From Candidatus Abyssobacteria bacterium SURF_17 (GTDB lineage Bacteria; Abyssobacteria; SURF-5): a DNA stretch of 64,000 nt. The first letter of the stretch is position 1; each line of letters starts with the position of its first letter. Both the position numbers and the translations under genes were made by a program. Location of the stretch: assembly GCA_003598055.1 (NCBI GenBank), contig QZKI01000022.1:15566-79565 (forward strand). The letters run 5' to 3'. Shown here one piece after another: positions 14,045 through 61,067 of this stretch. The notes beneath the pieces were generated by a model. That model was not told the origin of the DNA, did no database searches, and was given only the letters and a program-made list of their open reading frames with translations.

Positions 14045-14127
14045 CCGACGTCCGAAGGCCGTGCACGAGAGAATGAAGGGGCGCATATGCAATGCGCCCC
14101 TTCTTGGCTTCATGAGCGGGAGAATCT

Positions 14128-24571: not shown

Positions 24572-26902
24572 TTAATTACACTTCGAGTAGCCGCAGACGC
24601 GGCAGACGATGCAACCGCCCTCGCGCTCGATTTTCGCGCCGCAGTCCGGGCACGGTTTGGAGAGCGCCACGCTCGGTTCCGGGCGCTTTTCGGTCTCGAC
24701 CTCTCCGTTGACTTCTTCCTCGACGACCGGGCGGTTGGACATCTTTGTGTATTTCTCGATTGCTCGCCCGATGGCATCCGGACACGAGAGACAGCGTATC
24801 TCGGAGTTGCTCCTCTTCGACGCGACGGTTGAGAGGCAGCGGATTCCCTTTAGTTGCTCGATGAGCGCATCCACGCTGATACCCGACCTGAGCGCGAGCG
24901 AAACCAGCCGGCTCGTGGCTTCCGATTGCGACGGGCAGCCGCCGGCCCTTCCCGTGCTTGTGAACACCTCGCAGATTCCCAGCTCATCGGAATTGACGGT
25001 CACATACAGGTTGCCGCAGCCGATGACGACCTTCTCGGTCGTGCCGTGGGTGACGGTTTTGCGCGGGCGCGGTGTTATGGAGCCATCCTGCACATGCGCG
25101 TCGGACTTTCTGGTAATGCTTTTTGTCCACACTTGCTCGCTGCGGCTGCCGTCGCGGAAGATGGTGACCCCTTTGCATTCCAGCTTATAGGCCAATCGGT
25201 ACACCTTCTCGACATCAGCCTGGGTCGCGGTATTGGCAAAGTTGACGGTTTTCGAAACGGCGTTATCGGTATGCTTCTGGAATGCCGCCTGCATCTGGAC
25301 GTGCCACTCCGGCGAAACATCGTGCGCGGTCACAAATATCTTCTTGATGTCGGCGGGTACCTCCGCCAGTTCGCCGATTCCTCCCGCCTCGGCCATCTTC
25401 TTCATGACCTGCGGCGAGAAAAATCCTTGTTCCTTTGCCATTTGGCGGAAAATCGGGTGTACCTCGATGAGCTCGTCGTTATCGAGCACGTGGCGCGTGA
25501 ACGCAATCGCAAATATCGGCTCGATACCGCTCGAGCATCCGGAGATTATGCTGATGGTGCCCGTCGGCGCAATCGTTGTCACGGTCGCATTGCGCATCGG
25601 CTTGCCCGAGTTCGCATACGTGCTCTTGGCGTAGTTCGGGAACGAGCCGCGCGCCTCGGCAATCTTGGAGGATTCGTCGTGCGATTTATCCTGGATGAAC
25701 GACATCACTTCGTCGGCCACTTTGAGCGCCTCTTCGGAGTTATACGGGATGCCCATCCGGATGAGCATATCGGCAAATCCCATTACACCCAAGCCTATCT
25801 TGCGGTTGGCGAGTGTCATCTCCTTTATCTTCGAGAGTGGATAGTTGTTGATGTCGATGACATTATCGAGGAAATGGACGGCCATTCGTGCGGTACGCGC
25901 CAGCTTCGGGAAATCCACCTCATAGTGACTGTTGCGCTTCACGAGCATTTTCGCCAGATTGATCGAGCCAAGATTGCAGGACTCATACGGGAGCAGTGGC
26001 TGCTCGCCGCACGGGTTCGTGCTCTCCATTTTGCCGACCAGGGGTGTCGGGTTGGAAGCATTGATGCGGTCAATGAAAATGATGCCCGGATCCCCGTTCA
26101 GCCATGCATGCTCGACAATCATGTCGAAGACCTTACCTGCCTTGAGGCGCTCGACGGTCTTTCCGGTGCGCGGATTGACTAGCTCGTACTCTCCGTCGGC
26201 CTCGAGAGCCTTCATAAATTTCTCGGTGAGCGCTACGGAAATGTTGAAGTTGTTGAGCTGGCTCTCCTGCTCTTTGGCGACGATGAACTCGAGGATGTCC
26301 GGATGGTCCACGCGGAGAATGCCCATGTTGGCGCCGCGACGGGTGCCTCCCTGTTTTATCGTTTCCGTCGCCATGTCGAATACTTTCATGAATGAGATGG
26401 GCCCGCTTGATATGCCTTTGGTCGAGAGCACGGTGTCGTTCTTCGGGCGTATCTGCGAAAAGGAAAAGCCCGTGCCGCCGCCGCTCTTGTGAATGAGCGC
26501 CGTGTCTTTCACAGCCTCAAAGATGCTGTCCATCGAATCCCCCACGGGGAGCACGAAACATGCGGAAAGCTGCCCGAGCTCGCGCCCCGCATTCATGAGC
26601 GTGGGCGAATTGGGCATGAACTCCATGTTCGTCATAAGCGAGTAGAATTCCCTCGCTCTTGACAGCACATCGGCGGTTTCATTATAGATTCTATCTACAC
26701 CGGCGATGGTCATGGCCACTCGCCAGAACATGTCCTCTGGTCGCTCAACCGGCTTGCCGTCCTCGCTCTTCTTTAAGTACCGCTTCTCCAATACCTTAAG
26801 GGCATTCACCGTAAACTCGATTTCGGCTTTCGGCGGCGGAAGAAGGCTCGCCTTTGAAGTTCTCGTTACGCTGGCTCTCTTGCCACTTTTCACCGTCGGC
26901 AT
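24572..26902 (-). CDS. nrdJ: ribonucleoside-diphosphate/triphosphate reductase, class II, adenosylcobalamin-dependent
   Basis: 776 aa. N-terminal NALKVLEKRYLKK...FMPNSPTLMNAG and the later C-terminal cysteine pairs. C-terminal Zn-ribbon CPDCG...CIVCRVCG. Confidence 0.9.
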   Translation of the reverse strand: MPTVKSGKRASVTRTSKASLLPPPKAEIEFTVNALKVLEKRYLKKSEDGKPVERPEDMFWRVAMTIAGVDRIYNETADVLSRAREFYSLMTNMEFMPNSPTLMNAGRELGQLSACFVLPVGDSMDSIFEAVKDTALIHKSGGGTGFSFSQIRPKNDTVLSTKGISSGPISFMKVFDMATETIKQGGTRRGANMGILRVDHPDILEFIVAKEQESQLNNFNISVALTEKFMKALEADGEYELVNPRTGKTVERLKAGKVFDMIVEHAWLNGDPGIIFIDRINASNPTPLVGKMESTNPCGEQPLLPYESCNLGSINLAKMLVKRNSHYEVDFPKLARTARMAVHFLDNVIDINNYPLSKIKEMTLANRKIGLGVMGFADMLIRMGIPYNSEEALKVADEVMSFIQDKSHDESSKIAEARGSFPNYAKSTYANSGKPMRNATVTTIAPTGTISIISGCSSGIEPIFAIAFTRHVLDNDELIEVHPIFRQMAKEQGFFSPQVMKKMAEAGGIGELAEVPADIKKIFVTAHDVSPEWHVQMQAAFQKHTDNAVSKTVNFANTATQADVEKVYRLAYKLECKGVTIFRDGSRSEQVWTKSITRKSDAHVQDGSITPRPRKTVTHGTTEKVVIGCGNLYVTVNSDELGICEVFTSTGRAGGCPSQSEATSRLVSLALRSGISVDALIEQLKGIRCLSTVASKRSNSEIRCLSCPDAIGRAIEKYTKMSNRPVVEEEVNGEVETEKRPEPSVALSKPCPDCGAKIEREGGCIVCRVCGYSKCN

Positions 26903-27293
26903 TCCTTATTCCCCCCTCATCATAATTATGTATAAATCCTTAAAATATCGAAAGTTGCGCATTGCCGAAGCCTTGATGGCGCATGTCCCGAAGAGACAAC
27001 AACCCCCGTTTCTTCACTCATGATTCTTGAGATGGCTTACTGCAGGGCCGAAAACTATCTTACACCGCGAAGGCCGGAAAGTCAATCAATCTCATTTACG
27101 ATCGACAACTGAAAAAATAACTTCTACACCTGCGTATTCTTTGATATTCGGTGGATAATCGGAAGTTTTCAGGTCAATTCTTCGGGAGCTCTGCTGTTTC
27201 AGGTGTCTTGTGCCAGTATTTCAGAAGTCTGCACCGCGCAGAACGTTACCATCTCCTTCTAATCGTCTATCCTGTGGCATCCTTAACTATAGC

Positions 27294-27309
27294 ACACAAT
27301 ATGTAGTGT
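27294..27309. promoter_or_regulatory. candidate NrdR box (ACACAATATGTAGTGT) in the nrdJ leader
   Basis: 15/16 match to the published NrdR-box consensus acaCwAtATaTwGtgt. Palindromic. About 390 nt upstream of the annotated nrdJ start, inside a 1.16 kb ORF-free region. Confidence 0.4.
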
Positions 27310-27960
27310 TGTCAATAGGAAAATTCCGCCACCTTCTTCGTGTCCGACCTCCTGCGGTCGCAACTTTTGGAGTGGTCATTGGTTCCGAACTACCGGAGGC
27401 GGGCGTCGGAATTTCAATTTGTGAATACGGCGAGGTGTTCCCTCCCCTTCCGTGAGGACAACCCGGCGGTGAGTCTCCCTTCATCACACACGGTACCGCT
27501 AAATGTTTGTGTAGCAGCGGCAGTTTTCATACAGGAGCGCATGGCTTGCGCTCTAAGAAGAGAAGAAGCGGCCGCATCCCGACTTTTCGGCAGTATCAAG
27601 GCTGCAGTATTCTCTGCACGCAAGTTGGTGTCCGCATGTTTTACGGAAGCCTGTTACATCGGTGTGGTTTCCTGCACGCCTGCCCTTTCCGAATTCTTCG
27701 ATTCGCGTTGACTTGCCATTGCGAACTTTGTTAAACTAACACTGTGAGCAGGATTCGCCTTGAGGAATAGCGCTACAAAGCTTCCTTATGGGTTCCCATA
27801 TTCCTGACAGTCATTGTTTGGTTCAACTATGCTTGATTCCGGCTTCAAAGGAAATCTAGAGAAGGTGAGCGTCGCAGCTTTTCTCCGGCATCTTTCCATC
27901 ATAGATGGTTGTGCAGACGCGGCAGGAGTGAACAGCGCGGCGTAGACACAACCCCGGACT

Positions 27961-28023
27961 GTTATTGCGAGGGGGTCGAAAGCAATCTCTTTATCATAGG
28001 GGGATTGCTTTGCTGGCAACGAC
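27961..28023. repeat. modular nested-inverted-repeat element, short copy F
   Basis: GTTATTGCGAGGGGGTCGAAAGCAATCTC ... GGATTGCTTTG-CTGGCAACGAC is a degenerate version of the GTCATTGCGAG/GAAGCAATCTC module. Confidence 0.4.
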
Positions 28024-28063
28024 CTCGGTTCGGAGATCATGACAGGAATTCAAGGTTTCGAAA

Positions 28064-28798
28064 GTGAGTAATAGAAAGATGTCTGCACGGAAGTATGACT
28101 ACGTCTTTCTCGATGCCGGATACACGCTTTTCACGGCGAATCCGTCTCCCGCGAGGTTTTACCATCAGGTGTGCACGCGTCATGGAGCGGAGTTCACATT
28201 GGAGCGGTTGACTGGTGCTATGCGTGAAGTATGGGTGGAACACGTGATTCCCGAGATGACCGACCCCGAGGCTGACCTTGTGTGTTCCGACGAAGAAGAC
28301 CGCATGTGGTGGTGGAATTACGACAGAGAGGTATTCAAACGATTGGGAATCCTGGAAGAGAAGCAGGAAGGGATTTTCGCGGAGATCTACCGGTTCTTCA
28401 GTGACCCGGCGGCATGGGAACTGTATCCGGATACGCTCGAATCGCTTGAGCAGCTCAGAGCGAGCAACCTGTCGCTGGCTATCGTTTCGAACTGGAACTC
28501 CAGCCTCGGAAAGATAGTTGATGGGCTCAAACTGGCCGACTATTTCGACTTTGTCATCTCGTCGGCCGAAGCGGGATGGAAGAAGCCATCGCCACGCATA
28601 TTCGAACTGGCGCTCGAGCGCGCGGGAGCCGATGCCCCGCGCGTTGTTCACATCGGCGATACCTACCAGACCGATGTGCTTGGGGCACGGAAAGCAGGCA
28701 TCAGGGGTATCATGCTTGACCGGCGTGGCGGAACTCATCACGATCATGAGGTGATAACCTGCTTGACGCAACTCCATTCGCTGCTGGCGCACGGATGA
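28064..28798 (+). CDS. HAD-superfamily hydrolase (subfamily IA-like)
   Basis: Motif I FLDAGYT (the second Asp of DxDxT is absent), motif II IVSNW, motif III K in GWKKPSP, motif IV GDTYQTD. 244 aa. Confidence 0.7.
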   Translation: MSNRKMSARKYDYVFLDAGYTLFTANPSPARFYHQVCTRHGAEFTLERLTGAMREVWVEHVIPEMTDPEADLVCSDEEDRMWWWNYDREVFKRLGILEEKQEGIFAEIYRFFSDPAAWELYPDTLESLEQLRASNLSLAIVSNWNSSLGKIVDGLKLADYFDFVISSAEAGWKKPSPRIFELALERAGADAPRVVHIGDTYQTDVLGARKAGIRGIMLDRRGGTHHDHEVITCLTQLHSLLAHG

Positions 28799-28882
28799 CA
28801 CGAGGAAACGCAACAGAAGAGGACTGACGGCTCCACTCCGAGGAAGGACATGATAGTGCCGACTTCGCTGACGGGGGAATGA

Positions 28883-29716
28883 ATGAAGAAACAGATTGAC
28901 AACTATCAGATACTAGGCGTCATCGGGAATCCGCAGGAGAGCCGCGTGTTCCTCGTGGAAGAAGTGGGCACCGGCAGGAAATTAGCCCTGAAGGCCCTAC
29001 CGATGGACTTCTTCGACAGCGAGCGGGAATTCAACTCATTTGCGCAGGAGGTCGAAAAGGTAGCTCAGTTTCGGTGTCCCAATCTGGTCGCATATTACAA
29101 GCTTCTGGGGAAGTACACGGAAGGGCTCATTCTTACTGAATATGTCGAGGGGATGAATCTGAAGGCATATGTGGACAGCCAGCAGCATCCTTTCTCAGAG
29201 TTACTCCGCATAGCAATCCAGATCCTGAAGGGTGTTCAGTACCTTCATCATTTCAAGATGCTGCATCAGAATCTTAAGGCAACCAACGTATTGATAAATT
29301 CGAACCTGAGCATAAAGCTCTCTGATTTCTATTTCTCGAAATATTTCAACCGTTGGCGGAAGCGACGCGGTTATCCTTCCGTAGAAGCGGTCAAGTTTTT
29401 TTCGCCGGAACAGGTGAAGGATAAATCGCTCGACGCGCGAAGCGATTATTATTCGGTGGGCGTGCTGCTATTTTACCTGTTCACCCGTGTGCTGCCCATC
29501 AGGGGAACATCAATGCAAGAGATCATGCAGAAACATCTGCGGATGGGCGTCGTTGAGGTTCCATCGACGATTAATCCGGAGGTCCCGCCCGAGGTGAGCG
29601 GCGTCGTGATGAAGATGCTCCAAAAGAAGCCGAGGAAACGGCTGTCGTCGCTTTCGGAGCTTATCCTCGACCTCTCGCGGATGGAACAACGCCAGCAGAA
29701 ATCTGCGGGAATCTAG
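28883..29716 (+). CDS. protein-kinase-like domain protein, predicted pseudokinase (HRD->HQN, DFG->DFY)
   Basis: Glycine-rich loop LGVIGNP, beta3 Lys in LALKAL, hinge LTEYVEG. The catalytic loop HQNLKATNVLI lacks the catalytic Asp. Activation segment DFYFS...SPEQ. Subdomain IX SDYYSVGVLL. Confidence 0.6.
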   Translation: MKKQIDNYQILGVIGNPQESRVFLVEEVGTGRKLALKALPMDFFDSEREFNSFAQEVEKVAQFRCPNLVAYYKLLGKYTEGLILTEYVEGMNLKAYVDSQQHPFSELLRIAIQILKGVQYLHHFKMLHQNLKATNVLINSNLSIKLSDFYFSKYFNRWRKRRGYPSVEAVKFFSPEQVKDKSLDARSDYYSVGVLLFYLFTRVLPIRGTSMQEIMQKHLRMGVVEVPSTINPEVPPEVSGVVMKMLQKKPRKRLSSLSELILDLSRMEQRQQKSAGI

Positions 29717-29750
29717 AGTTTGTCCCGCGCTCGTGAGGATGGATATGTGC

Positions 29751-29859
29751 GGGGGCGCAGGGCTGTGCGCCCCTACAACAAGAATTGCGGCTGCTTCGCA
29801 AAGAGTTGACCGCATCTCGTGTGGAGGGGCGACCCGACGTCGGGTCGCCCCTACAATTG
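29751..29859. repeat. two REP-like GC hairpins with CCCCTACAA tail (GGGGCGCAGGGCTGTGCGCCCCTACAACA; GGGGCGACCCGACGTCGGGTCGCCCCTACAATTG)
   Basis: Members of the GTAG-headed hairpin family repeated through the window. They sit in the kinase-PilZ spacer. Confidence 0.5.
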
Positions 29860-29900
29860 CCAAAGGGCCGCGATACCGGTTTCAGAACGTTGGTACAGGG

Positions 29901-31019
29901 ATGATTCCGATTCCGCTTGCGATTGACCCCAACTATATCACGATTCTTGAGTATCTGAGGCCGCCCAGGCCAAGTGCAGCCACTCTGTGGTGGGTACTTG
30001 CGACAATTCTCGGTGCGGGCCTGGTATTCGCCCTGTTCGAAATAGTCTCCCGTTACATCCGCCGGAGTCGGCAAATGAAGAAAAGCCGCGACGATTTCAA
30101 TCAGCTCACCCTTGTTTGTCAGTTAGCTCCGGAAGAAGTGACCCTTTTGAGGCGGCTCATCCTCGTGTGCGGCATACGACGCCCCGACCGGCTCTTCACC
30201 TCATTCGAGCTCTTCAATAGATGCCTGGAGGAGCAGGGGCCGGCGGCATCGGGTCCGCTGAGCGAGTCCGACATTGCGAGGCTTCGCATCATTCGGAATA
30301 AGGTGTTCTTCGGAGAACGGTCCCGAGTGCCTCCGATACGGAGCACGCATGCGTTACGACCCAACCAATGGCTCCATCTGAGACGAATGGCAAACGGGAA
30401 GGTGTTTATGGCGCCCGTTATTGAAGCCGGCGACAGCGGGCTTCTTGTTGCGACGCCTCGCATAAAGGGGCAGTATATGGAAGTCAAACCGGGAGAACGG
30501 TTCGAAATTTATTTCTGGCGTGACAGAGACGCGAGTTATCATTTTGCATCCGAGGTGATCGGCCAGTCGGGGATGCACTATCTGATCACGATTTTCAAGC
30601 ATGTTGACGACGTGGAGCGGATTCAACGCCGCCAATACCACCGTGTTGAGACCTCGATACCCGTTGTCGCGTTTCCTCTTCCCCGGGAAGAACTCGACCG
30701 AATCGGACGGAACGAGCCCATCATTGACACCGAGCGCCCCGGCCTGCGTGGATATGTGGTTGATATCAGCGGAGCCGGGTTTGCGTTCGTCGCTCGCGCA
30801 GAGCTCAAGCCTAATGACCTGATATATATCGATCTGCCAAGCGAAGATGAAGATTCCCGGATTCCCGTCATCGGGAAGATATTGAGCGTGTCGAGGAGAG
30901 GAAGAACGGACGAGTTCATCATGCATGCCGAATTTGCCGGACTCACCACTGACGCCCACGAGAAGATATTCCGACTCATCTATTCACAGGCCAGACAAGA
31001 GGCACTGCCCGCTGTCTGA
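29901..31019 (+). CDS. membrane-anchored PilZ-domain protein (c-di-GMP receptor), YcgR-like two-domain arrangement
   Basis: C-terminal PilZ motifs RRQYHRV (RxxxR) and DISGAGFAF (DxSxGG). One N-terminal TM (WWVLATILGAGLVFALF). Start taken at Met 29901, downstream of the REP hairpins that occupy the upstream part of the longest ORF. Confidence 0.6.
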   Translation: MIPIPLAIDPNYITILEYLRPPRPSAATLWWVLATILGAGLVFALFEIVSRYIRRSRQMKKSRDDFNQLTLVCQLAPEEVTLLRRLILVCGIRRPDRLFTSFELFNRCLEEQGPAASGPLSESDIARLRIIRNKVFFGERSRVPPIRSTHALRPNQWLHLRRMANGKVFMAPVIEAGDSGLLVATPRIKGQYMEVKPGERFEIYFWRDRDASYHFASEVIGQSGMHYLITIFKHVDDVERIQRRQYHRVETSIPVVAFPLPREELDRIGRNEPIIDTERPGLRGYVVDISGAGFAFVARAELKPNDLIYIDLPSEDEDSRIPVIGKILSVSRRGRTDEFIMHAEFAGLTTDAHEKIFRLIYSQARQEALPAV

Positions 31020-31121: not shown

Positions 31122-31931
31122 TTACTTCCCTTTGAACTCCGGCGGTCGCTTCTGCATGAAGGCCTGAACTGCCTCGACGACGTCTTCGCACGGCAGGACC
31201 GCCGCGTTCTTCTGCGCCGCGTATTCGAGGCCGGGATACACGCCGTGCTCACGGCTGTACAGGAGCACTTCCTTTGTTCCCTGCACTGCGAGCGGGGAGC
31301 AGGCTGCGATTTCGGCTGCAAGCTGCTTTGCCTGTTCGTAGAGGCTGTCTTTGTCCTCGCAGAAACGGGTGATGAATCCAATGCGAAGGGCCTCTTCTGC
31401 GCTGAAGTTTCTTCCCGTCAATGCCAACTCGCGGAACCAGCCGTGGCCTATGATATGGGGGAGACGCTGGAGCGTGCCGAGGTCGGCGATGAGCGCCATT
31501 TTGGTCTCACGCACGGAGAAAATCGCGTCTTTGCTTGCCATGCGGATGTCGCACGCGCTGACGAGGTCCACGCCTGCCCCGACGCAATGGCTGTGAACCG
31601 CGGCGATGACCGGCTTTCGGCACTTCTCGATGGCGTTCATGCCTTCCTGAGCTTCAATGATTTTCCTGCGATTGTTCTCGCGCACATCCGCGGTCGGGGA
31701 TTCGGCGAACCAGCTTGCGGCTTCGACCAAATCGAGGCCTGCGCTGAATGTCTTTCCCTCGGCCTTGATGACGATTACGCGCACTTCGGGGTCATTGTCG
31801 AATCTTGGGAATAGTTCACGCAACCCGGAAAAGAAATCGAAGCCCATCGTGTTACGCTTTTCGGGTCGGTTGAATGTCAACCAGGTGATGAATCCTTCTT
31901 TCTCGACCTTGAAAGGGCTATTATCGCTCAT
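31122..31931 (-). CDS. enoyl-CoA hydratase/isomerase (crotonase) family protein
   Basis: ITWLTFNRPEKRNTM...FSAGLDL oxyanion-hole motifs. 269 aa. Confidence 0.85.
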   Translation of the reverse strand: MSDNSPFKVEKEGFITWLTFNRPEKRNTMGFDFFSGLRELFPRFDNDPEVRVIVIKAEGKTFSAGLDLVEAASWFAESPTADVRENNRRKIIEAQEGMNAIEKCRKPVIAAVHSHCVGAGVDLVSACDIRMASKDAIFSVRETKMALIADLGTLQRLPHIIGHGWFRELALTGRNFSAEEALRIGFITRFCEDKDSLYEQAKQLAAEIAACSPLAVQGTKEVLLYSREHGVYPGLEYAAQKNAAVLPCEDVVEAVQAFMQKRPPEFKGK

Positions 31932-32102: not shown

Positions 32103-33233
32103 TCAGATTTTTTCCAGAGGCCGCTTCTGGCCGGCCATTTCGTTCTCCGATGCTACCTTCAATCGTAATTCCCTCGGGGATGCAAAAATCGGTTCGCGCT
32201 CGAGCCGTTCGAGCCTGAGGGCCTCGGTCGGGCACGTGACCGTGCACGCTCCACAGCCCATGCAGCGGGTTTCATCAATTTGGGCTTTGTCGGCGCCGTC
32301 GGGCAGGGAGATTGCCTTGAAGAAACAGCGGTCAACGCATGTGGCGCACGCGGCGCAATCGTCGCTCACCCGCGCGACGAAGTTGGAGCGAGCAAATGCC
32401 CTTGGATTGTCCCATCTCGTCAGGCCGCGCGTGATGGAGCAGCAGCAGCCGCAGCAGAAGCAGATGACGCCATCTTTCATCTCGACGGCGTTATCGGTCA
32501 TGACGACGAGCCCGAGGTCTCGCATTTCTTCGGCAAATTTTTTTGCTTCTTCCCGCGTCACCTGTTTGCCATCGCCGCGGCCGACCATGAGCATTGCAGG
32601 CATGCCCACGAACAGGCACGATCCCACGGGATACTTATCCTTGCACTCGCGGATTCCGAGCTTGTCGGTCCGGTTGCGGCACGGGCACGGTGCCAGCGCG
32701 AGCGCTCCCAAGTTGGCCTGGTCCAAGAACACATCGAGTTCCTCATGAGAAAGCACCTGCTGGCCCCCTGAAATTGACTGGTCCACGGGCACGGCCCGGC
32801 GCTGTGGAGTACCTTTCGCCGACGATTCATAATAGCGGTAGAAGCCGTCCTTAATGTAGTACTGCTGGTACAAACGGCCAGCTTTCATGGCATCTTCGTC
32901 ATCGGCATTTCGAAATGGGTGATAATTGACCAGAAGCGGGATTACCGGAAGCATGTATTGTCCGCCGAATCCGATAATTACGCCTCTTTCCGTCAGTCGC
33001 CCGAGAACTTCTTCGACTTCACTGACAGGTTTCCCGGCCCTCTCAGCGACCTCTTCCGCCGTCAAACGGTTCGGGTCGACCGAAAGGAACGAAGCCACCT
33101 CTGCTTCTTCGGGTTTCAAAAGAATCTGAAGATACTCGAGAAAAGCCGGAGAGAAATCTCCGTCTACCTTCGGCACGCCCGTGATGTTCATGTCAAGCTT
33201 TTCGGCGAGCGTTTTGTATGGAGACGTCGTCAT
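32103..33233 (-). CDS. Fe-S protein: N-terminal winged-helix-like domain + Cys-cluster (CPC..C..CFCCGCCC) + two CxxCxxCxxxCP ferredoxin motifs (paralog 1, divergent)
   Basis: 376 aa. Ferredoxin motifs CAACATCVDRC and CMGCGACTVTCP. Shares domain order and about one third identity with the next two genes. Confidence 0.6.
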   Translation of the reverse strand: MTTSPYKTLAEKLDMNITGVPKVDGDFSPAFLEYLQILLKPEEAEVASFLSVDPNRLTAEEVAERAGKPVSEVEEVLGRLTERGVIIGFGGQYMLPVIPLLVNYHPFRNADDEDAMKAGRLYQQYYIKDGFYRYYESSAKGTPQRRAVPVDQSISGGQQVLSHEELDVFLDQANLGALALAPCPCRNRTDKLGIRECKDKYPVGSCLFVGMPAMLMVGRGDGKQVTREEAKKFAEEMRDLGLVVMTDNAVEMKDGVICFCCGCCCSITRGLTRWDNPRAFARSNFVARVSDDCAACATCVDRCFFKAISLPDGADKAQIDETRCMGCGACTVTCPTEALRLERLEREPIFASPRELRLKVASENEMAGQKRPLEKI

Positions 33234-33309
33234 TACCTTCTCCTCCTGATACCATCAGTTTGCTTTGCGAGTTAGCCCATAGCCGTTTCGAGGGGCAACG
33301 CAATGGAGC

Positions 33310-34413
33310 CTAAATCAGCCCTTCGAGAGTGCGGCCCGTCTTCTGTGCCTTTTCCATTGTCCAGGTGATCATGTTTTCCGGCGGGACGTCGATGTGCTCT
33401 TCATCCTTGCGTACAAGTGAGAGCGCTCCGCTGGGACACGTGACCACGCACACGCCGCACCCGATGCAGCGGTCTTGGTTTACTTCATAGTATTCGCTCC
33501 GCGATTCGATGGCCCCAACAGGGCATCGCTCATCGGCGCAGACGCCGCATGCGACGCATGTTTCCGGGTCGATGTTTGCCAGGTAATTGGATTTCGCAAG
33601 CATATGAGGCGATTTCGCCATCTTCACGCCGCGCAGGATCGCGCAGCAGCACGTGCAACAGTTGCAGATGAACACGTGGTCGTCCTGCACATTCCACGAA
33701 TTGTGCACGAGGCCTTCTTCCTCCGCCTTCTTGAGCAGTTCGAGCACTTCTTGCTTCGTTGCTTTTCGCGCGCCGCGGTACTCGATGTCGAACCCGTGCG
33801 GGTCGGGCGAGAAGGCGATGCAGTTGTTCATCGTCCTGTTGCAGCCTTTGCCGATGATCTTCATTTCCTTGCGGCAGATGCAGTCGGAAACAGCCCATGA
33901 TTGGGCTTTCTCGACCATGTTTGAGACTTTCTCGAACGGGAGCACGGTGAGCTCGTTCGGAATCGCCTGCTCTACGGGATACACCCGTATTTGTGCCGGC
34001 GCTTCCTTTCCCACGTGCTCGATGAACGCCTCTTCAAGGTATTGCTCGAACAGCTCGACGTATTCCTTGTCGAGCCGCGCGAGCTGAAACTCGTGAATCC
34101 CGAGAATGAACGGGAACGCGCTGTACATGCGGCTTTCCGCCGGCCCCATTCCCATGAGCTGGCCCTTTGAGGTCATCCTTTCGAGGATTTCGGCCATTTT
34201 CTTCGGGTCGCGGCCCAACCGCTCGGTTACCTGCTCGGCTGTCTCCGGCACCAATTTCATTTGTGATGCGACTTCGGCCTCCTCCTCCGTGAAAATCTTC
34301 TTGAGGATTCTTATCTCGACACCGCTCTCGGTCTTCGGATACCCGTGCGGCATCGCTTCGAGATGTTCGGCTAATTTCTGATAACTCCCTTTGCTCATGA
34401 ATCGTCCCTCCAA
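33310..34413 (-). CDS. Fe-S protein, winged-helix + Cys-cluster (CNCCTCCC) + 2x[4Fe-4S] ferredoxin motifs (paralog 2)
   Basis: 367 aa. Motifs CVACGVCADERCP and CIGCGVCVVTCP. Very high identity to paralog 3, roughly 80% or more by eye. Confidence 0.6.
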   Translation of the reverse strand: MEGRFMSKGSYQKLAEHLEAMPHGYPKTESGVEIRILKKIFTEEEAEVASQMKLVPETAEQVTERLGRDPKKMAEILERMTSKGQLMGMGPAESRMYSAFPFILGIHEFQLARLDKEYVELFEQYLEEAFIEHVGKEAPAQIRVYPVEQAIPNELTVLPFEKVSNMVEKAQSWAVSDCICRKEMKIIGKGCNRTMNNCIAFSPDPHGFDIEYRGARKATKQEVLELLKKAEEEGLVHNSWNVQDDHVFICNCCTCCCAILRGVKMAKSPHMLAKSNYLANIDPETCVACGVCADERCPVGAIESRSEYYEVNQDRCIGCGVCVVTCPSGALSLVRKDEEHIDVPPENMITWTMEKAQKTGRTLEGLI

Positions 34414-34455
34414 GCAACAAAACTCTCGTTCCGTTACAATAAGAATTTTCGGTCG

Positions 34456-35571
34456 TTATATCAGGCCTTCCATGGTGCGGCCGGTTTTCTGCGCTTTTTC
34501 CATTGTCCAGGCGACAATGTTATCGGGCGGAATGTCGATTTCGGCCTCGTCTTTCCTGACGAGCGAGAGCGCGCCGCTCGGGCACGTGACCACGCACACG
34601 CCGCAGCCGATGCAGCGCTCGCGATTTACTTCATAATGCTCGTTGCGCGCGTCGATTGCCTGCATCGGACATCTCTCGTCGGCGCACACGCCGCAGGCAG
34701 CACAGGTGTCCGCATCAATCTGTGCGTAGTAATTCGACCTAGCCGCGAAATTAGGCGCCTTCTTTATTCCGCGAAGCACGAGGCAGCAGCATGTGCAGCA
34801 GTTGCAGACAAACACATGGCTGTCCTGCACGTTCCACGAAGTGTGCACGAGACCTTCCTCCTCCGCCTTCTTGAGCAGTTCGAGCACTTCTTCCTTCGAG
34901 GCCTTCCGCGCGCCGCGATAATCGATGTCGAACCCATGCGGGTCCGCTGAAAATGCGATGCAGTTATTCATCGTAGCGCCGCATCCCTCGCCCAATATCT
35001 GCTTCTCCTTGCGACAAATGCAATCAGCTACGGCCCAGGCCTGAGCCTTCTCGACCATGCTTGAAACTTTTTCGAAGGGGAGCACGGTGAGTTCGGCTGT
35101 TATTGCCTGCTCCACGGGATAAATACGGACCTGGGACGGCGCTTCCTTCCCCACTGCGTCGGCATAAGCCTCCTCGAAATACTGCTCGAACAACTCTGCA
35201 TATTCCCTGTCAACTCGCGGCAATTGAAACTCGTGGACGCCGGCAATAAAGGGGAATGCACTGTACATGCGACCATCCTTAGGGCCCATCCCCATAAGCT
35301 GCCCTTTGGACGTCATCCTTTCCAGTAACTCGGCCATCTCCTTCGGCTCACGGCCGAGACGCTCGGCCACCTGGTCTGCATTCTCCGGCATCAGCTTCAT
35401 CTGCGACGCGACTTCGGCTTCCTCTTTCGTGAAAATCTTCTTCAAGATTCTTATCTCAATCCCGCTCTTGGTCTTCGGAAACCCCTGCGGCATCGCGTTG
35501 AGATGTTCGGCTAGGTTCCTGTACGTGTCTTTACTCATAGCTGTCTCCCTCCAAAGGACACCAATGGCCAC
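34456..35571 (-). CDS. Fe-S protein, winged-helix + Cys-cluster + 2x[4Fe-4S] ferredoxin motifs (paralog 3)
   Basis: 371 aa. Near-identical architecture and sequence to paralog 2, suggesting a recent tandem duplication. Confidence 0.6.
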   Translation of the reverse strand: MAIGVLWRETAMSKDTYRNLAEHLNAMPQGFPKTKSGIEIRILKKIFTKEEAEVASQMKLMPENADQVAERLGREPKEMAELLERMTSKGQLMGMGPKDGRMYSAFPFIAGVHEFQLPRVDREYAELFEQYFEEAYADAVGKEAPSQVRIYPVEQAITAELTVLPFEKVSSMVEKAQAWAVADCICRKEKQILGEGCGATMNNCIAFSADPHGFDIDYRGARKASKEEVLELLKKAEEEGLVHTSWNVQDSHVFVCNCCTCCCLVLRGIKKAPNFAARSNYYAQIDADTCAACGVCADERCPMQAIDARNEHYEVNRERCIGCGVCVVTCPSGALSLVRKDEAEIDIPPDNIVAWTMEKAQKTGRTMEGLI

Positions 35572-35637: not shown

Positions 35638-36300
35638 TCATTCGAATCCTTCTGTCTTCGGCTCGGGTAGTGTCTCTCGTATTTCCTCCTGTCTGTTCGT
35701 TGCCTGTTTACCCTCGTGTGTCAACCATCCCTCTATCAATTGGTGCAGCATATCGATGTTGCGCTCCATGATTTGCGGGTCTTTGTGAGTTTTGCGGAGT
35801 AAGAACATTCCTTGAGTTTGGGCAAGCACGAATTCGGCAATCTGGCTTGAGGGCAATTGCTCCCGAAATATGCCTGCTTGCTTTCCCTCTTCAAAGCAAT
35901 GCTCGAGTCGGTCTGCGCCTGCGCGGAAGAACGCGCTCAACGCCTGCCGCAGTGGCTCATGGATCGCACTCATCTCCTGCGCCAGATTTCCGAATGGACA
36001 TCCGAGTTCACCCAGCGGAGAGGTTCCAAGGGCGAGGATTCCGTCGAGGAAAGCATATATTCGTTGGAGAGGATTGAGTGCTGGATTGTCGAGGGATGGC
36101 TCAATCACGCGACCATAAAACCACTGCATTCTCCCGGTGAGCACCTCGAAGCCGAGCTGTTCTTTGCTGTCGAAATGGTAGTAGAAGTTGCTCTTGGTGA
36201 CGGAAGCGATGTCGAGGATATCCTGGATGCTGGTGTTATTGAAGCCCTTGGTATGAATAAGCTTAGCGGCTTCGATGAGGATTTTCTGTTTGGCGCTCAT
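35638..36300 (-). CDS. TetR/AcrR family transcriptional regulator
   Basis: N-terminal HTH ILIEAAKLIHTKGFNNTSIQDILDIASVTKSNFYYHF. 220 aa. Confidence 0.85.
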   Translation of the reverse strand: MSAKQKILIEAAKLIHTKGFNNTSIQDILDIASVTKSNFYYHFDSKEQLGFEVLTGRMQWFYGRVIEPSLDNPALNPLQRIYAFLDGILALGTSPLGELGCPFGNLAQEMSAIHEPLRQALSAFFRAGADRLEHCFEEGKQAGIFREQLPSSQIAEFVLAQTQGMFLLRKTHKDPQIMERNIDMLHQLIEGWLTHEGKQATNRQEEIRETLPEPKTEGFE

Positions 36301-39944: not shown

Positions 39945-39975
39945 CAGGGCGCAGCATGTTGCGCCCCTACAACCT
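39945..39975. repeat. REP-like hairpin GGGCGCAGCATGTTGCGCCCCTACAACC
   Basis: Same family as 29751-29859, 51015-51040 and 61037-61067. Confidence 0.5.
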
Positions 39976-49339: not shown

Positions 49340-49369
49340 GCAGGGGCACGGCACGCCGTGCCCCTGCAG
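49340..49369. repeat. perfect 30-bp palindrome TGCAGGGGCACGGCACGCCGTGCCCCTGCA (REP-like)
   Basis: Exact reverse-complement halves. GC-stem family similar to GGGCGCA...TGCGCCCC. Sits in the secDF-yajC spacer. Confidence 0.45.
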
Positions 49370-49870: not shown

Positions 49871-51040
<1,170 letters not shown>

Positions 51041-52383: not shown

Positions 52384-52431
52384 AAGGGCGCAATAAATTA
52401 CGCCCCTCTGCGCCTGCCGTAGGGGCGCGAT
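52384..52431. repeat. REP-like GC hairpins with AATAAATT loop (GGGCGCAATAAATTACGCCCC ... GTAGGGGCGCGATTCATCGCGCCC)
   Basis: Links the GC-stem and AT-loop families: GTAG head, GGGCGC stems, AATAAATT loop. Confidence 0.4.
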
Positions 52432-61036: not shown

Positions 61037-61067
61037 TTTGTAGGGGCGCACGGCCGTGCGCCCCTGC
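61037..61067. repeat. REP-like hairpin in inverted orientation TTGTAGGGGCGCACGGCCGTGCGCCCCTGCC
   Basis: GTAG head plus GGGCGCA/TGCGCCC stem. Confidence 0.45.

Follow-up and report, generated by a model that had tools for sequence, protein, structure and literature searches.

A conserved predicted operon joins a HAD-family hydrolase, a pseudokinase-like protein and a membrane-anchored PilZ protein in the Abyssubacteria/Hydrogenedentota lineage

Pseudokinases of the HER3/ErbB3 type carry an Asn in place of the Asp of the HRD motif, while the β3 Lys and the Asp of the DFG motif are kept. In bacteria, pseudokinases have been catalogued and are almost wholly uncharacterised, and for the CP1, DYD and DLHK families, which review PMC12599244 treats along with ActPs1-3 and GLW, genomic context provides no clear functional clue. 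As described there, the DYD family has exchanged the β3 Lys for Arg and has lost the αC Glu, the DLHK family keeps the HRD Asp and is degraded at the Lys and DFG motifs, the CP1 family is fused to COG3899, and the ActPs/GLW group comes under a heading of families divergent in all three motifs. Here we report a kinase fold with another pattern of losses, encoded within a 64,000-nt stretch of DNA (hereafter the window; contig QZKI01000022.1, positions 15,566 to 79,565) from Candidatus Abyssobacteria bacterium SURF_17. The SURF_17 genome originates from mine fluids at 1.5-km depth (PMC6121073) and is placed by the NCBI taxonomy in the class Candidatus Abyssobacteria of the phylum Candidatus Hydrogenedentota. 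At 28064-31019 of the window, three open reading frames (ORFs) follow one another on the forward strand in the order HAD-family hydrolase, kinase fold and PilZ protein, just as an earlier sequence-only reading of this DNA, which saw in them a possible signalling module, had placed them.

The PilZ protein invites comparison with a second group of described systems, the c-di-GMP receptors YcgR, MotI (DgrA) and PlzD (VCA0042), with which it shares a PilZNR-like barrel followed by a canonical PilZ barrel, an RRxxxR linker and a [D/N]hSxxG motif. It differs from them by about 150 extra N-terminal residues, comprising a transmembrane (TM) helix, a basic stretch and a Cys-bearing helical domain, and by the position of its gene, which follows the pseudokinase gene stop-to-start, at loci where no link to flagellar genes was seen. 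A functional tie between a Hanks-type kinase fold and a PilZ domain also has a precedent in fusion proteins. That is, Pkn1 of M. xanthus is listed as a PilZ fusion (bioRxiv 10.1101/814665), and a further fusion found here, P0076, has intact HRD and DLG motifs and a single C-terminal PilZ domain. In contrast to these fusions, the kinase fold of the SURF_17 locus is impaired and encoded separately, and is accompanied by a membrane receptor with two barrels and by a HAD enzyme. A full-text literature search combining 'pseudokinase' and 'PilZ' returned nothing relevant among the 15 top-ranked of its 50 matches. The trio brings together known domains in a conserved combination that is so far undescribed.

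Related loci were collected by a kinase-profile search of GTDB representative genomes, which gave eight, and by look-ups of individual proteins, which gave four more: L016 (in a complete Hydrogenedentota genome), L017, L018 and L019 (from Abyssubacteria SURF_5). When the window proteins were compared with all 12 by tblastn, the order and orientation HAD, kinase, PilZ were constant as far as each contig reaches. The complete trio is found in L001-L004, L006, L007, L016 and L019, and as much of it as the contig permits in L005, L008, L017 and L018. Co-occurrence of the three genes in relatives, which had been proposed as a check on the module, thus extends to all 12 related loci with sufficient contig, from Abyssubacteria and Hydrogenedentota metagenome-assembled genomes. 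The tightest coupling is that of the kinase and PilZ genes, the distance from the kinase stop codon to the PilZ start being -4 to +2 nt in nine relatives; the spacing between the HAD and kinase genes ranges from -4 to 138 nt overall and is 51-138 nt in most loci. The surroundings of the trio vary. Upstream lies, depending on the locus, an AMP-binding enzyme, a LysR/SBP pair, a 172-aa membrane ORF or a ribonucleotide reductase, and downstream a convergent DUF166 gene in eight loci, a TPR protein in SURF_5 (L019) and an enoyl-CoA hydratase in the window. The window neighbours (ribonucleotide reductase, enoyl-CoA hydratase and Fe-S proteins) are absent from the related loci, except for the upstream ribonucleotide reductase in L017. 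Synonymous divergence (dS) between the window and most loci is saturated or very high (at least 1.7 where estimable), and against L017 the ratio of nonsynonymous to synonymous divergence (dN/dS) takes values of 0.040 (kinase fold) and 0.10 (HAD gene); all three genes are under strong purifying selection.

The three protein families are equally narrow and co-extensive. Within each tight family, identity ranges from 67 to 94% for the kinase, 55 to 73% for PilZ and 66 to 100% for full-length HAD, with a big gap beyond, and longest contigs of equal size pair 24 kinase/PilZ hits and 20 kinase/HAD hits. An exhaustive HMMER scan of 1.84 billion 50%-representatives returned only two clusters of the kinase family, one reading HQN and the other HRN at the catalytic loop; apart from one fragment, all other hits were multi-domain kinases whose summed scores are inflated. 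Exact-sequence look-ups gave no record for the window's kinase protein or for the PilZ protein P0082. At the loci of the HRN subfamily (L014 and L015; P0055 and P0057) the kinase gene has no HAD gene and no PilZ gene beside it, which makes the trio specific to the HQN family. As judged from these comparisons, the trio constitutes a conserved, vertically inherited predicted operon specific to the Abyssubacteria/Hydrogenedentota lineage, and the three proteins probably work together.

Two other genes recur beside the trio and were considered as core members, then rejected. The DUF166 gene lies directly 3′ of the PilZ gene, in convergent orientation, in L001-L004, L006-L008 and L016 (e.g. 9952-10773 of L016, − strand), but is missing from L019 and from the window, in which its place is taken by an enoyl-CoA hydratase gene (31122-31931). 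The 172-aa hydrophobic ORF, which has no significant Pfam match, ends a few bases 5′ of the HAD gene in four relatives, L001 (4641-5156), L004 (4707-5216), L005 (845-1357) and L016 (6622-7140). Although the window lacks it, this ORF may represent a fourth operon gene in part of the lineage.

The kinase-like gene (28883-29716, + strand) encodes a standalone protein of 277 aa for which a Hanks-type (ePK) fold is indicated both by its match to the Pkinase profile (PF00069; E = 1e-39, with 137 bits where the cut-off is 31.7) and by a bilobal AlphaFold2 (AF2) model (pLDDT 92.8, pTM 0.91). The closest solved sequences are S. aureus Stk1 (4eqm/9ymt; 27-28% identity, TM-score about 0.82) and M. tuberculosis PknB, and entries of Stk1, PknB and MEK1 occupy the top ranks of a Foldseek search with the model (TM-scores of 0.82-0.84 for Stk1 and MEK1). 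While Stk1/PknB are thus its best matches in sequence and structure, the window protein has no PASTA domains, other extra domains or TM segment. Motifs were called from a residue-by-residue alignment to S. aureus Stk1 (4eqm), and residue counts given below refer to 45 sequences, made up of 42 family members and three of the sister subfamily (P0055/57/58) that reads HRN. In this alignment HRDIKxxN corresponds to HQNLKATN (HQN at 29264-29272), that is, the catalytic Asp is gone while the Lys and Asn stay. DFG has become DFY (29324-29332), with the metal-binding Asp retained and the Gly lost, and the Gly loop GxGxxGxV reads GNPQESRV (28925-28948), without its second and third Gly. Still in place are the β3 Lys (ALKAL), the αC Glu (EREF) and SPE, along with the Asp of subdomain IX and the Arg of subdomain XI.

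These features are shared across the family. Asn130, at the position of the catalytic Asp, and Asp148, the Asp of DFG, occur in all 45 sequences, and Lys37 of β3 in 43, the other two having Arg; taken together, the nucleotide and metal ligands Lys37, Glu49, Asn135 and Asp148 are kept in 43-45 of the 45. The HRD Arg is replaced by Gln in every trio-associated sequence (42/42), and the DFG Gly by Tyr or Phe across the family. The Gly-loop residues G15, N16, P17, S20, R21 and V22 are invariant (GNPxxSRV), as are R157-W158-R159-K160 of the RWRKRRG motif (29351-29371), which falls in a basic activation segment (residues 153-162) modelled as a helix. Where the activation-segment 'GT' would have its Gly, 44/45 sequences carry Glu168, and within the catalytic loop there is no Asp or Glu. 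The sequence-only reading had reported loss of the catalytic HRD Asp together with retention of the β3 Lys and subdomain IX. The Stk1 alignment bears this out, HQN aligning to the HRD of Stk1, and the alternative acidic residue named as able to overturn the claim does not sit in the catalytic loop. The further statement that DFG had been replaced went too far, since it is true of the Gly and not of the Asp.

By the sequence definition of a pseudokinase, in which at least one of the β3 Lys, the HRD Asp and the DFG Asp is missing, the protein qualifies through the HRD Asp; the other two are present, so that one of three motifs is degraded. From its sequence, it is a predicted pseudokinase with one degraded motif and a remodelled Gly loop, not a wholesale-degraded one. 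It looks like a nucleotide-binding but transfer-impaired protein, which may have weak or atypical activity. In this it resembles HER3, which likewise has Asn for the catalytic base and keeps the β3 Lys, the catalytic-loop Asn and the DFG Asp, and by that analogy nucleotide binding, little or no phosphotransfer and a role as an allosteric partner would be expected. It differs from HER3 in being bacterial, in consisting of the kinase domain alone, and in its GNPxxSRV loop, its Tyr/Phe in place of the DFG Gly and its RWRKRRG motif, and there is no sequence relationship past the kinase fold. The protein is like the bacterial families of PMC12599244, as far as their sections describe them, in having a conserved kinase fold, a degraded catalytic motif and no assigned function. 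It does not fit any of DYD, DLHK, CP1 or ActPs/GLW, as Lys37, Glu49 and Asp148 are present, an Asp at position 130 is absent and there is no extra domain; the distinction relies on the family descriptions for the first three and on the section heading for ActPs/GLW (PMC12599244). More distant kinase-fold relatives, P0061 and P0063, show another degradation pattern (HRG, and GFG for DFG), and in P0065 the first ~75 residues of the pseudokinase family are joined to a C-terminal region of glycosyl-hydrolase-38 type, and this protein is probably a chimera produced by assembly or gene calling.

The PilZ gene (29901-31019, + strand) is predicted, from Pfam matches, orthologues and an AF2 model, to encode a membrane-anchored c-di-GMP receptor of 372 aa. 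A database protein of 372 aa (P0082) matches it with 100% identity and fixes ATG 29901, rather than GTG 29733 further upstream, as the start; a longer ORF from that GTG was rejected, as it reads through the hairpins described below and the orthologues give it no support. Pfam places a PilZNR domain (PF12945) at aa 158-223 (E = 3e-8; 30372-30569) and a PilZ domain (PF07238) at aa 242-361 (E = 5e-12; 30624-30983), the N-terminal and C-terminal barrels of a YcgR/MotI-type architecture. The two motifs for c-di-GMP binding, RxxxR and [D/N]hSxxG, are found in the PilZ β-barrel as RRQYHR (RRxxxR; aa 243-248, 30627-30644) and DISGAG (DxSxxG; aa 288-293, 30762-30779). R243, R244, R248, S290 and G293 are invariant in 40 PilZ orthologues, and the eight sequences shown in full have either Asp or Asn at position 288. 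A single hydrophobic helix at about aa 27-50 (~29979-30050) is followed by RYIRRSRQMKKSR. The description of the protein as TM-anchored with intact PilZ motifs therefore holds, the one TM helix being present and the two motifs present and conserved in orthologues. In the AF2 model (pLDDT 82) a long helix with the hydrophobic stretch leads into a helical domain, two β-barrels and a C-terminal helix. Foldseek matched the model to MotI (5vx6, E = 7.8e-12), 2rde (E = 2.3e-10) and YcgR (5y6f, E = 2.4e-7); the matches comprise MotI, PlzD, PP4397, MrkH and YcgR, including PilZ structures with c-di-GMP bound. The helical domain (about aa 55-140, reaching about residue 137 in the model) matched no solved structure in that search. 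It is placed on the cytoplasmic side and contains three nearly invariant cysteines, C73, C90 and C108, which could be a redox or metal site. Judged by its sequence and modelled fold, the protein has all the hallmarks of a membrane-anchored, c-di-GMP-binding YcgR/MotI-type protein.

The HAD gene (28079-28798, + strand) encodes a predicted REG-2-like HAD-IA hydrolase of 239 aa. An in-frame GTG would extend the ORF to 28064-28798, and a 100%-identical SURF_17 entry, 'HAD family hydrolase', begins at ATG 28079. The protein matches Pfam HAD_2 (E = 1.5e-19) and Hydrolase (also about 1e-19), and it passes the cut-off of NCBIfam TIGR02252 'REG-2-like HAD-IA' marginally, with 159.7 bits against 155.2. 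Its best relative of known structure in a family-profile search is human HDHD3 (3k1z, E = 8e-28), for whose substrate a literature search returned nothing useful. Like these REG-2-like enzymes it has the nucleophile Asp and intact motifs II-IV: D17 (codon 28112-28114), S142 of motif II, K173/K174 of motif III and D199 and D204 of motif IV are invariant among nine orthologues. It departs from them in the DAGYT of motif I, with Gly at Asp+2, and in a CSDxEDRxWWWxYD segment of the cap that is invariant among the nine. The second Asp of DxDxT, the general acid/base, is lacking in all nine orthologues, in which motif I reads F-x-D-A-G-Y-T-L-F with DAGYT fixed, and a solved HAD relative, ST2620 (2zg6), is likewise without Asp+2, its motif I being DFGNT. 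The earlier remark that motif I (FLDAGYT) lacks the second Asp is thus correct, but given this invariance and the ST2620 case the missing residue reflects no degeneration and is no sign of inactivity. Two further cysteines, C37 and C74, are invariant in the HAD protein.

The explanation that we favour, and hold with slightly more belief than doubt, is that the trio forms a lineage-specific operon for a membrane-associated complex of c-di-GMP receptor and pseudokinase, for which the HAD enzyme would act as catalytic partner. The near-universal stop-start junction and the identical narrow distribution make a shared function of the kinase and PilZ proteins likely and a physical complex plausible. 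In such a complex, pseudokinase and PilZ receptor would associate stoichiometrically at the cytoplasmic face of the membrane. Binding of c-di-GMP to the RRxxxR linker and [D/N]xSxxG would close the two barrels, as in YcgR, MotI and PlzD, and this closure would alter the receptor's grip on the pseudokinase. The latter would serve as an allosteric adaptor, with the RWRKRRG helix and the remodelled nucleotide pocket as likely interfaces, and would control the HAD hydrolase, the sole predicted active enzyme of the trio, or its access to a phosphorylated substrate. A more specific proposal, which we regard as rather doubtful, is that c-di-GMP bound to the PilZ receptor recruits or releases a silent, nucleotide-binding kinase fold that in turn switches the HAD phosphatase. 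In a stronger variant, the remodelled Gly loop and RWRKRRG may bind a ligand other than ATP. Several points weigh against the receptor-pseudokinase complex. Co-transcription indicates a common pathway, not a physical complex, and the HRN subfamily, without HAD or PilZ neighbours, implies that the kinase fold can function without either. The looser HAD-kinase spacing makes the HAD link weaker than the kinase-PilZ link, and because every locus belongs to a single lineage of class to phylum rank, the trio can have been retained independently only a limited number of times. Lastly, an Asn at the position of the catalytic base lowers kinase activity and does not always abolish it.

This last point leads to the alternative that survives best, although we consider it unlikely: the kinase fold could be a weak or atypical but real phosphotransferase whose target is the PilZ protein or some other molecule, opposed by the HAD enzyme as phosphatase, the two forming a c-di-GMP-gated pair. 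The four retained nucleotide and metal ligands would allow for this, and Glu168 or the substrate itself could supply the missing base. A kinase gene beside a phosphatase-type gene is also a natural antagonistic pair, but HAD-IA enzymes with a C1 cap mostly have small molecules as substrates, and the normal partners of bacterial Hanks kinases are PP2C phosphatases. Fusions of PilZ domains with active kinases do exist (P0076; Pkn1, bioRxiv 10.1101/814665). Against their example stand the uniform Asn at the catalytic Asp, the uniform Gln at the HRD Arg in the trio family, and a Gly loop in which Pro and Ser replace the second and third Gly and which also contains an acidic residue.

Alternatively, the PilZ protein could be a membrane-tethered flagellar brake or clutch of the YcgR/MotI type, with the HAD and pseudokinase genes co-transcribed as passengers, which seems to us quite improbable. 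Brakes of this type are soluble two-domain proteins that work on the flagellar motor (MotA, FliG/FliM). The PilZ protein's best structural matches are indeed MotI/DgrA and YcgR-type proteins, its orthologues carry the JGI label 'c-di-GMP-binding flagellar brake protein YcgR', and genes for flagellar machinery are reported from Abyssubacteria genomes (PMC6121073). However, no flagellar gene is present in any of the trio-locus flanks examined, the matched YcgR/MotI structures contain nothing equivalent to the TM helix and the conserved helical domain, and the junction of -4 to +2 nt in nine loci, together with the identical narrow distribution of kinase and PilZ, speaks for more than co-transcription by chance.

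It is very unlikely that the adjacency is mere inherited synteny, maintained without selection among three functionally unrelated genes. All loci do come from one candidate class or phylum, but synonymous sites are saturated between most of them, and several rearrangements on both flanks have left the trio, its order and its 1-2-nt junction intact. An anti-phage defence module akin to PD-T4-6 or MADS mad6, which the kinase fold's PADLOC matches (mad6 E = 2e-53, PD-T4-6 E = 3e-49) and its 100 bits to NCBIfam MAD6 might suggest, is barely credible and was rejected, because these matches are generic and confined to the kinase domain (the MAD6 cut-off is 460 bits, and models of the PknB type give higher scores), PADLOC matches neither the HAD nor the PilZ protein, the catalytic Asp has been lost, and the genes behave as single-copy orthologues with dN/dS of 0.04-0.1 among metabolic neighbours and not in a variable defence island.

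In the window, the kinase-PilZ junction is interrupted by a lineage-specific insertion of 184 nt (29717-29900, + strand), recognised by comparison of the gap with that of relatives; in the 94%-identical L017 the gap is 180 nt. It contains two REP-like (repetitive extragenic palindrome) hairpins on the + strand. The first, GGGGCGCA-N6-TGCGCCCC followed by TACAA, spans 29752-29778 (hairpin 29752-29773), and the second, GGGGCGACCCGAC/GTCGGGTCGCCCC again followed by TACAA, spans 29826-29856 (hairpin 29826-29851). The second is intact in L017 as well, where the first is degenerate. The motif GCGCCCCTACA occurs seven times in the 64-kb window against 0.75 expected, a number reached in none of 100 shuffles. 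The further copies are dispersed through the window at 14074-14084 (−), 39961-39971, 51029-51039, 52418-52428 (−) and 61039-61049 (−), with a variant at 49343, and the element consensus is [A/G]GGGCGCA-N6-TGCGCCCCTACAA. Within the 64-kb window, these elements are thus of the REP type, that is, GC-rich imperfect palindromes with a conserved tail, extragenic and in many copies. A simple terminator scan found no T-run after either hairpin on the + strand, and a role as intrinsic terminators was rejected on that basis. The two REP hairpins noted before the PilZ gene are therefore real, but they belong to a recent insertion and not to the conserved junction. By sequence comparison, the insertion appears as a recent event in the SURF_17 lineage within an otherwise tightly coupled junction, and it should uncouple translation of the receptor from that of the pseudokinase in SURF_17 and its nearest relative.

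Some other features surround the trio in the window. Between the HAD gene and a divergent class II ribonucleotide reductase gene (24572-26902, − strand) lies a 1.18-kb stretch (26903-28078) with no convincing ORF and no Rfam match even at E ≤ 1; a scan of the whole window against Rfam at gathering thresholds likewise gave zero matches. The stretch has ~74% DNA identity to L017, and the gene called there in L017 is not conserved as a protein. A near-consensus promoter-like site, TTGACA-18-TATAGT with TG, is found on the − strand at 27315-27286, which would give the reductase gene a leader of about 380 nt. On the other side, 32103-35571 (− strand) holds three tandem paralogues of ~370 aa each with a C-terminal 4Fe-4S dicluster domain, two of them 77% identical, followed by a TetR regulator gene (35638-36300). 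In relatives these paralogues have no association with the trio.

The module is limited in scope, being confined to the uncultured Abyssubacteria/Hydrogenedentota lineage. Nevertheless, the pseudokinase family described here stands out by consisting of the kinase domain alone, by strong purifying selection and by its fixed operon, which offers a candidate input (c-di-GMP), a candidate partner (the predicted receptor) and a candidate enzymatic output (the HAD hydrolase). If the link between receptor and pseudokinase is true, it would place an effector of a new type downstream of PilZ receptors and provide a tractable system for the role of a dead kinase fold in bacteria. Should the more specific switch from c-di-GMP through the pseudokinase to the HAD enzyme also be true, this would be the first bacterial second-messenger pathway to signal through a pseudokinase, and a minimal standalone model of pseudokinase allostery.

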